Source of the DNA: Dictyostelium discoideum
Lineage: Eukaryota
DNA length: 64,000 nucleotides
NCBI GenBank assembly: GCA_000004695.1
Contig: CM000151.3
Span: 960,001-1,024,000 of the forward strand
Reading direction: 5' to 3'
The position numbers and the translations under genes were made by a program. The notes beneath the pieces were generated by a model. It had not been told where the DNA came from, did no database searches, and saw nothing but the letters and a program-made list of their open reading frames with translations. Shown piece by piece: positions 28,479 to 29,780 of the stretch (the first letter of the stretch is position 1; each line of letters opens with the position of its first letter).

Positions 28479-29780
28479 AAGATTTGGGATATGAAAACTT
28501 AGAACTTTCAACATTTATTAATGATTGTAACTATGATACCCAAAGATGTAATATTACAGTTTATCAAAATTCAATTTTATATAATTCATTCTCAGAACCA
28601 ATATTATTTGGCAGATATACATTTTTAAGAGAATTTATAAATGATAAAAAACCAATTTATTTTTTAGGTTTGGATGATGCAGGTGTATGTAATTTATTAT
28701 TAGAAAAATTAAAAAACATAATAATAATAATTTAATTGACATAAAAATAATAATAAGATTATAGTGTATAGATCTAACGAGTTAAAAGAAATACTTGATG
28801 GTTTAGATGTAATTATACGAAATCAAAAAGGAAACCAAATCTCTTATTTAAGTTTTTCAGAATTAAATAGAGAATCTGCAGGATATGATATTGATCAAAA
28901 ATATACAACAACAATACCAGGTCCGTACTTATATCATTGTAGAAGATCAGAATTAGAATTTGGATGGAAAATATTTGAAAATTGCCTTGCAATTGGTGAT
29001 AATAATGAATTTAATGTGATAACTTACTATGTTCACAATATGAATCCTATAGTTTTAAATTTTTCACAAATCTATGAAAATTATACAATTAAAACAAATG
29101 AAACTTTAATAAGTAATACATTTACTGCAAAAGATATATTCTCATCATTTTATTATTATTGTACAAGTGATATAAATAATCAAGTATATGTAGGTTTAAT
29201 ATTTAGTAATGTCTCATATCAGTTTACATCAAATTCAACATGTTTAGTTAAACATATTAATGAACCATCATGAAATTATTCCAATATAATCGGTATAGTA
29301 GGATATAAAGATTCAATATTAATATGTGGTAATCATCAATCAAATAATAGTTTAATTGTATATTCATATAATTTTACAAATGAAAAACAGTCATTTGTAT
29401 ACTCTGATAAAGCTAATATCACTCATGTAATTCAACTTCAATTTTCATCACCAAGATATTGTCTATTCTTTTCTGATAAAACAAATTCTTCAATATTATT
29501 CGATATTTACCAAAACAAAGTAATAATAAATCATAATCACCTTAATTTAAATATTTCACGTCATTTACATGAAAATAGTACAAGATCAATAAGTTATTTT
29601 ATGAATCCCAAAGAATTCACCAAAAATGTTAGAAATTATACAGAACCAACAAATGCACCATTAGAAAACGATATTCTACCTAATAACTATGTTAGTGATG
29701 AAAATAATTCTCCAACACTCACTGTATCATTTTCAACATTAACCATTTCCTTATTACTTTCTTTTATTAATATCCTTTAA
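28479..29780 (+). CDS. Hypothetical N-glycosylation-rich protein with a hydrophobic C-terminus (GPI-anchor-like). Internal exon about 28479..28682, then 28765..29780, with an in-frame TGA at 29271-29273.
   Basis: ORF 28484..28735 is preceded by a TTTAG acceptor and a stop, and no ATG, so it is an internal exon. GTGTAT...ATAG joins it to ORF 28764..29273. The same frame stays open for 169 more codons after the TGA, ending in the hydrophobic tail TLTISLLLSFINIL*. There are many NxS/T sites. Confidence 0.45.

Follow-up and report, generated by a model that had tools for sequence, protein, structure and literature searches.

An in-frame TGA in a probable recently inactivated gene of a dictyostelid-specific protein family in Dictyostelium discoideum

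The window analysed here is a stretch of 64 000 nucleotides from Dictyostelium discoideum (contig CM000151.3, positions 960 001–1 024 000, forward strand), and all coordinates given below are window positions. The window is nuclear DNA of about 76% AT, with long homopolymer tracts and short AT-rich GT..AG introns, and it encodes proteins that have relatives in dictyostelids only. The gene under study lies on the forward strand. A remnant of its first exon was located at 28424–28684 (+) using tblastn with the family proteins described below; it comprises a truncated signal peptide and a conserved N-terminal region, reads ...STFINDCNYDTQRCN...PIYFLGLDDAG and ends at the donor GGT/GTATGT, the exon/intron boundary at 28684 being taken from an intact paralogue (P0003, locus L006). 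The genuine intron of the family follows at 28685–28757 (+); it is 73 nt long (GTATGT...AAG), is 90% AT and is found with the same position and sequence in the intact paralogues. Exon 2, delimited by the alignment of homologues, occupies 28758–29780 (+) and has 341 codons including the final TAA. It is broken by a TGA at 29271–29273 (+), which, by comparison with orthologues and paralogues, arose when T was replaced by G at 29272 of a TTA (Leu) codon. The exon closes with a hydrophobic tail resembling a GPI signal (VSFSTLTISLLLSFINIL; 29724–29777, +), which holds the top-scoring 15-residue Kyte–Doolittle windows.

Upstream of the gene, a block at 27761–28036 (+) is 87% identical to the corresponding sequence of D. 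cf. discoideum (assembly GCA_054859205.1, locus L004), rising to 95% over 27952–28036. The block is less AT-rich than its surroundings and has no match in Rfam. It is conserved both inside and outside a mini-ORF of 28 codons (MIENNDIIINNKNKCTLHLKIKPFMFK; 27856–27938, +), which lacks a signal peptide and serves as the start exon in automated gene models. The approximately 400 bp between the block and the gene cannot be aligned between the window and the L004 lineage. Downstream, the segment 30141–36137 is an insertion of about 6 kb relative to the two orthologous loci, L004 and L011. It carries a retroelement on the reverse strand with a reverse-transcriptase domain (RVT_1), an ORF at 30964–33546 and a longer open frame; the corresponding product in a second D. 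discoideum assembly (L007) has 1563 residues. The insertion stops some 43 bp short of the 3' end of a tRNA-Gly(GCC) gene (36180–36250, −), and we take the element to resemble the tRNA-gene-targeted TRE elements of D. discoideum.

Translation of 28764–29783 gave 169 sense codons, the TGA at 29271–29273, a further 168 sense codons and a TAA at 29778–29780, with the C-terminus reading ...TLTISLLLSFINIL before this last stop. An earlier reading of this DNA made without database searches (the sequence-only reading) had reported the TGA together with 169 further open codons; the open run is there, although the count of 169 includes the terminal TAA. Given the base composition of the window, the probability that a random codon is a stop is 0.09, and that of 168 consecutive open codons is 1.3 × 10−7. 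None of 200 000 mononucleotide shuffles of the 504 nt 3' of the TGA was free of stops. The gene frame of 28758–29780 contains two stops, compared with 23–47 in each of the five other frames. The exon is about 76% AT, and the wider region 28001–30000 about 79.5%. Translation, stop statistics and shuffles thus all bear out an in-frame TGA with a long open frame beyond it. The ORF had been placed at 28764..29273; its stop is correct, but the GTG at 28764 is a start only for an ORF finder, the exon beginning at 28758.

Among 5.8 billion proteins searched, ten relatives were found, every one from Dictyostelium, and a filter-free profile search of 1.84 billion representatives returned nine family members only. 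The family ranges over the D. discoideum complex, D. dimigraforme, D. purpureum and Tieghemostelium lacteum (DLAC_10299); no protein of the family from AX4 or in UniProt was found in these protein searches. Full-length members have 426–439 residues and are 67–76% identical to the window copy. Nine relatives align over the TGA position without a gap, and the best-conserved block of the family (DSILICGNH.SNNSL.VY.Y...THVIQ.QF) lies 3' of the TGA; the two open stretches are therefore one coding sequence, as the sequence-only reading had held, and the downstream frame is conserved among relatives. Neither the window protein nor any of ten family members matched a Pfam entry at E ≤ 1, and the matches of a profile search against PDB sequences were at the level of noise (E ≥ 0.19). 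The AlphaFold2 model, calculated from a ten-sequence alignment, is of unusable quality and has a mean pLDDT of 43.5, with only residues ~270–360, which are all-β, predicted with moderate confidence. A literature search on the gene and the family found nothing specific. The family is a small dictyostelid-specific uncharacterised orphan.

The product that would be made if the TGA were read through has 16 N-x-S/T sequons, and its strongly hydrophobic segments are confined to the N-terminus and the extreme C-terminus. By inspection, the N-terminus of the intact relatives consists of a short polar stretch, a hydrophobic stretch and then ...SNVSS or SNISS. The last 15–18 residues form the most hydrophobic segment on the Kyte–Doolittle scale (top hydropathy windows in ...DENNSPTLTVSFSTLTISLLLSFINIL, at the extreme C-terminus); they follow small residues (NNS), have no cytoplasmic extension beyond them and are conserved as a hydrophobic tail in all full-length relatives. 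The GPI-like tail that had been noted is accordingly present as a hydrophobic C-terminus, while GPI anchoring itself is plausible from inspection. The ancestral product was probably a secreted, heavily N-glycosylated, GPI-anchored protein of about 430 residues encoded by two exons, judging from these sequence features. Contact site A (gp80) and the prespore antigen PsA are examples of GPI-anchored surface glycoproteins of Dictyostelium. The intact relatives resemble such proteins in overall architecture, with an N-terminus that looks like a cleavable signal peptide, numerous N-x-S/T sequons and a hydrophobic tail (~17 residues) that follows small residues and has no cytoplasmic tail behind it; they differ in having no detectable sequence similarity to any described family.

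Syntenic orthologues were identified in two assemblies, GCA_054859355.1 (L011; flanks ~91% identical to the window) and the D. cf. discoideum assembly of L004 (flanks 91% identical). In both, the upstream neighbours are ASCH and adh_short genes and the downstream neighbours are the tRNA-Gly gene and a dCMP deaminase gene. At the site of the TGA, the window reads CCA TCA TGA AAT, L011 reads CCA TCA TTA AAT, L004 reads CCA TTA TTA AAC and the intact paralogue L006 reads CCA TTA TTA AAT. Leucine occupies this position in all aligned relatives, and with L011, L004 and L006 as outgroups the change from TTA to TGA falls on the window branch; the stop is derived. The orthologues have decayed independently. 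L011 has a CAA-to-TAA change in exon 1, a TTA-to-TAA change in exon 2 and a deletion of ~460 bp, none of them common to the window, and L004 has an 8 bp deletion and a mutated acceptor at the start of exon 2. Among the paralogues, L008 and L009 (GCA_054859385.1; subtelomeric, near PIF1-helicase genes) contain several internal stops, and the reading frame of L005 is shifted within a T-run, possibly through an assembly error. The intact copies come from D. cf. discoideum, a cryptic species: L006 (GCA_054859235.1, 4413–13550) holds four of them in tandem, encoding 439–441 residues. None of the examined loci of D. discoideum sensu stricto (the window locus and two subtelomeric loci) has an intact copy; all carry stops. 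This difference, with none seen in D. discoideum sensu stricto versus four tandem copies in a sister cryptic species, may be of interest for studies of lineage-specific gene loss.

Selective constraint on the window copy looks weak. Between the window and L004, exon 2 has a Ka/Ks of 0.83, with 1.53 for the part 5' of the TGA and 0.37 for the part 3' of it, all from small counts, and the gene is less well conserved than its flanks (87% versus 91%). The residual constraint after the TGA is compatible with a very recent inactivation. The window branch itself carries about ten nonsynonymous changes and one nonsense change compared with seven synonymous changes (ω roughly 0.4, again from small counts), which suggests that inactivation came late on that branch; late inactivation would explain why the downstream frame is still open.

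The start of the gene is damaged as well. Both orthologues open with an ATG and a stretch that looks like a typical signal peptide (MKNFYFFIILIFFISNVSS in L011 and MNNYYFFIILIFFISNVSS in L004). The start region of L011 is AATGAAGAATTTTTATTTTTTTATTA (translated MKNFYFFIILIFFISNVSS) and that of L004 is AATGAATAATTATTATTTTTTTATTA; aligned with these, the window reads ATTGAAGA, a gap of eight positions and TTCCCTATTA, and the Logan contigs L001 and L002 as well as L007 agree with the window. This alignment places a TTG at 28420–28422 (+) where the ancestral ATG stood and an 8 bp deletion between 28426 and 28427 (+). In the exon 1 frame, three-frame translation shows a further TGA at 28421–28423 (+; ...KFY, stop, RFPIILIFFISNVSS), which is created by the deletion. 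Exon 1 contains no in-frame ATG anywhere. Because the start codon has been lost and the signal-peptide region has suffered a deletion, no product bearing a signal peptide is possible.

The reality of the lesions was assessed in independent sequences. A 20 kb stretch of the window is 99.45% identical to JBTAPE010000001.1 of the D. discoideum assembly GCA_054883475.1 (L007), in which the gene is identical to the window copy, TGA included. The TGA is also present in the Logan contigs L001–L003 (runs SRR26869267, SRR28564541 and SRR28564542), which are colinear with the genome, intron included. Their sole difference lies at 29390, where the contigs have an A and the window a G; the change is synonymous and A is the ancestral base. 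Since the contigs differ from the window at this site and still have the TGA, at least two haplotypes carry it. The runs may, however, all derive from close relatives. The TTG at the start and the 8 bp deletion recur in the Logan contigs and in L007. The lesions are therefore real, and the comparison with other strains that the sequence-only reading had proposed finds the TGA shared with GCA_054883475.1 and with Logan contigs of at least three runs.

Two protein records from the Logan contigs give a different impression. The protein P0001, 99% identical to the window product, has a tryptophan at the position of the stop, and P0013, the exon 1 protein from the same source, likewise shows a tryptophan for a TGA; the underlying DNA is TGA. 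We therefore rejected the tryptophan of P0001 as evidence of a TGG in other samples. Most likely, AT-rich eukaryotic contigs were translated with the prokaryotic code in which TGA is Trp. The records (L001–L003, corresponding to window positions 28374–29875) also show GTG as a methionine start. They belong to a large metagenome-derived collection, and such translations could falsely imply a TGG codon or recoding.

A second in-frame TGA occurs elsewhere in the window, at 49299–49301 (+), in the open frame 48378–53813 of a large YEATS-domain gene. It lies within an Arg-Asp repeat (..RDRDRD, stop, DRDRER..) and is flanked by 307 open codons before and 1503 after. In GCA_054883475.1 the codon is AGA (Arg; L010, at about position 4473) and the product annotated there has 2333 residues. 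This TGA is therefore specific to the source of the window, and is either a private A-to-T mutation or a sequencing error. The same discrepancy means that a comparison across assemblies is able to expose such differences.

Three explanations had been put forward for the TGA at 29271–29273, namely a recent nonsense mutation leaving a pseudogene, a sequencing or assembly error, and a selenocysteine or read-through codon; the evidence upholds the first and speaks against the others. Were the TGA an error, the true base at 29272 would be T, the codon TTA (Leu) and the gene intact. The relatives do have TTA at this codon, and the TGA at 49299–49301, which was not reproduced elsewhere, indicates that the source of the window is not free of errors or variants. 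Against this, the TGA at 29271–29273 recurs unchanged in the independent assembly GCA_054883475.1 and in independent contigs built from short reads of at least three runs, among them a haplotype with a different base at 29390; the start lesion and the 8 bp deletion are reproduced in the same data, and the gene is broken even without the TGA. We regard an error as extremely improbable. Rescue of the gene by splicing is the course taken by the GenBank model KAM9951615.1 (P0015, 421 residues), which was rebuilt exactly as 27856–27938 + 28469–28684 + 28758–29241 + 29299–29780. Here a new 5' exon (27856–27938) and a short intron (29242–29298, +) would supply the rescue (`intronization'). The proposed intron has GT..AG boundaries and its length of 57 nt is divisible by three; the model yields an uninterrupted ORF of 421 residues, and the block that holds the new 5' exon is conserved between the window and L004. 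That conservation, however, is equal outside the mini-ORF. The 57 nt are 75% AT, like the exon (76%) and in contrast to the true intron (90%), and the donor GTTTAG is far from the GTAAGT/GTATGT form of the family's real intron. Splicing would moreover remove 19 codons with conserved family residues (STCLVK.I.EPLLNY..IIGI.G; in the window, CLVKHINEPS, stop, NYSNIIGIV), and the resulting product, with N-glycosylation sites and an anchor signal at its C-terminus but no signal peptide, would make no biological sense. The base composition, the form of the donor and the conserved residues that would be lost led us to reject a hidden intron around the TGA, and the 57 nt intron of KAM9951615.1 is judged to be an annotation artefact, a work-around of the gene predictor; a real intron with a real upstream start is highly improbable. 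Equally slight is the chance that the locus is alive in the broader sense of a transcript that starts at 27856–27938, is spliced to exon 1 and has its TGA either removed with the 57 nt intron or read through. The product would in that case be a rewired family protein, signal-peptide-less or signal-anchored, and a nonsense allele would have been rescued by intronization or read-through.

Recoding of the stop fares no better. D. discoideum uses selenocysteine; it has the selenocysteine machinery and five selenoproteins with distinctive SECIS elements, and a dedicated search found no further selenoproteins in this species (PMC2375036). Decoding of the UGA as selenocysteine would depend on such an element in the 3' UTR, and a single TGTAATGA motif, with the Dictyostelium-type UGUA plus AUGA core, was found at 30200, 420 nt past the TAA. 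The motif nevertheless lies beyond long poly-T tracts and inside the ~6 kb insertion that is absent from the orthologous loci, and the 121 nt around it fold no better than shuffles (z = −0.27); it was rejected as a SECIS element on its position in a strain-specific insertion and its lack of a stable fold. No SECIS family match was found around the gene (28300–30900) even at E ≤ 10, and the Rfam scan detected no SECIS or other element near the gene, the tRNA-Gly being the only match in the whole window. The known selenoprotein genes (SPS2, SelK, Sep15, MSP and the deiodinase-like gene; PMC2375036) likewise have an in-frame UGA with a long open frame after it, but the window gene differs from them in having neither a SECIS element nor a start codon, in a UGA that is not conserved and in Leu at the site. 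No relative has Cys or Sec at the homologous residue, which is always Leu; a redox motif is missing, and the start codon of the window copy is destroyed. The likelihood of selenocysteine is accordingly close to nil. Programmed or leaky read-through, giving a full-length protein from a gene that still functions, agrees with the open downstream frame and its residual constraint (Ka/Ks 0.37). Against it, the stop is not conserved and is a lineage-specific replacement of a conserved Leu for which the relatives have a sense TTA, and the 120 nt that start at the stop are less stably folded than their shuffled versions (z = +0.78), leaving no downstream structure. The context is UGA-AAU, that is UGA-A, where termination is efficient according to work on mammals and yeast, in contrast to UGA-C. 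A usable start codon and a signal peptide are also lacking, and we consider read-through very unlikely.

With high probability, the locus at 28420–29780 (+) is a recently inactivated gene, a non-processed pseudogene and not a recoded stop. It is homologous to a family with intact members, it carries disabling lesions and these lesions are real. On the window lineage a T-to-G transversion turned the conserved Leu codon TTA into the TGA at 29271–29273; the copy also lost its initiation codon (ATG to TTG), and 8 bp were deleted from the region of the signal peptide. That the 168 codons 3' of the TGA are still open would be due only to an inactivation that is recent relative to the substitution rate. 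Function has presumably been lost, and no full-length product would be expected to be translated. This pseudogene status is of an ordinary, lineage-specific kind. In the annotation of KAM9951615.1 the nonsense codon is concealed and an unrelated ORF further upstream is used as the start; the locus merits a pseudogene flag.

Such a history has a parallel in the tgr surface-protein family of D. discoideum, which shows birth-and-death dynamics with strain-variable pseudogenes (bioRxiv 10.1101/2025.10.22.684067). Like the present family, tgr is multi-copy, fast-evolving and secreted or membrane-anchored; its genes are likewise born by tandem duplication and die through internal stops, frameshifts and deletions, and the pseudogene state varies between strains and cryptic species (bioRxiv 10.1101/2025.10.22.684067). 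The two families have no sequence relationship, and the family described here has no IPT/Ig domains or Pfam match and is much smaller (nine representatives in 1.84 billion proteins). In biological terms the locus is a minor finding, a further instance of how lineage-specific surface-protein families of social amoebae turn over by gene birth and death.

Inside the downstream insertion, at 30619–30778 (+), lies a relic of ~160 bp related to the gene. Its first part (30619–30686) resembles the region upstream of the L004 start (78% identity), and 30670–30768 is 86% identical to the family gene across the end of exon 1, the intron and the start of exon 2 (28661–28766). Going by these alignments, the relic is possibly the remnant of a second tandem copy that has been almost wholly deleted.
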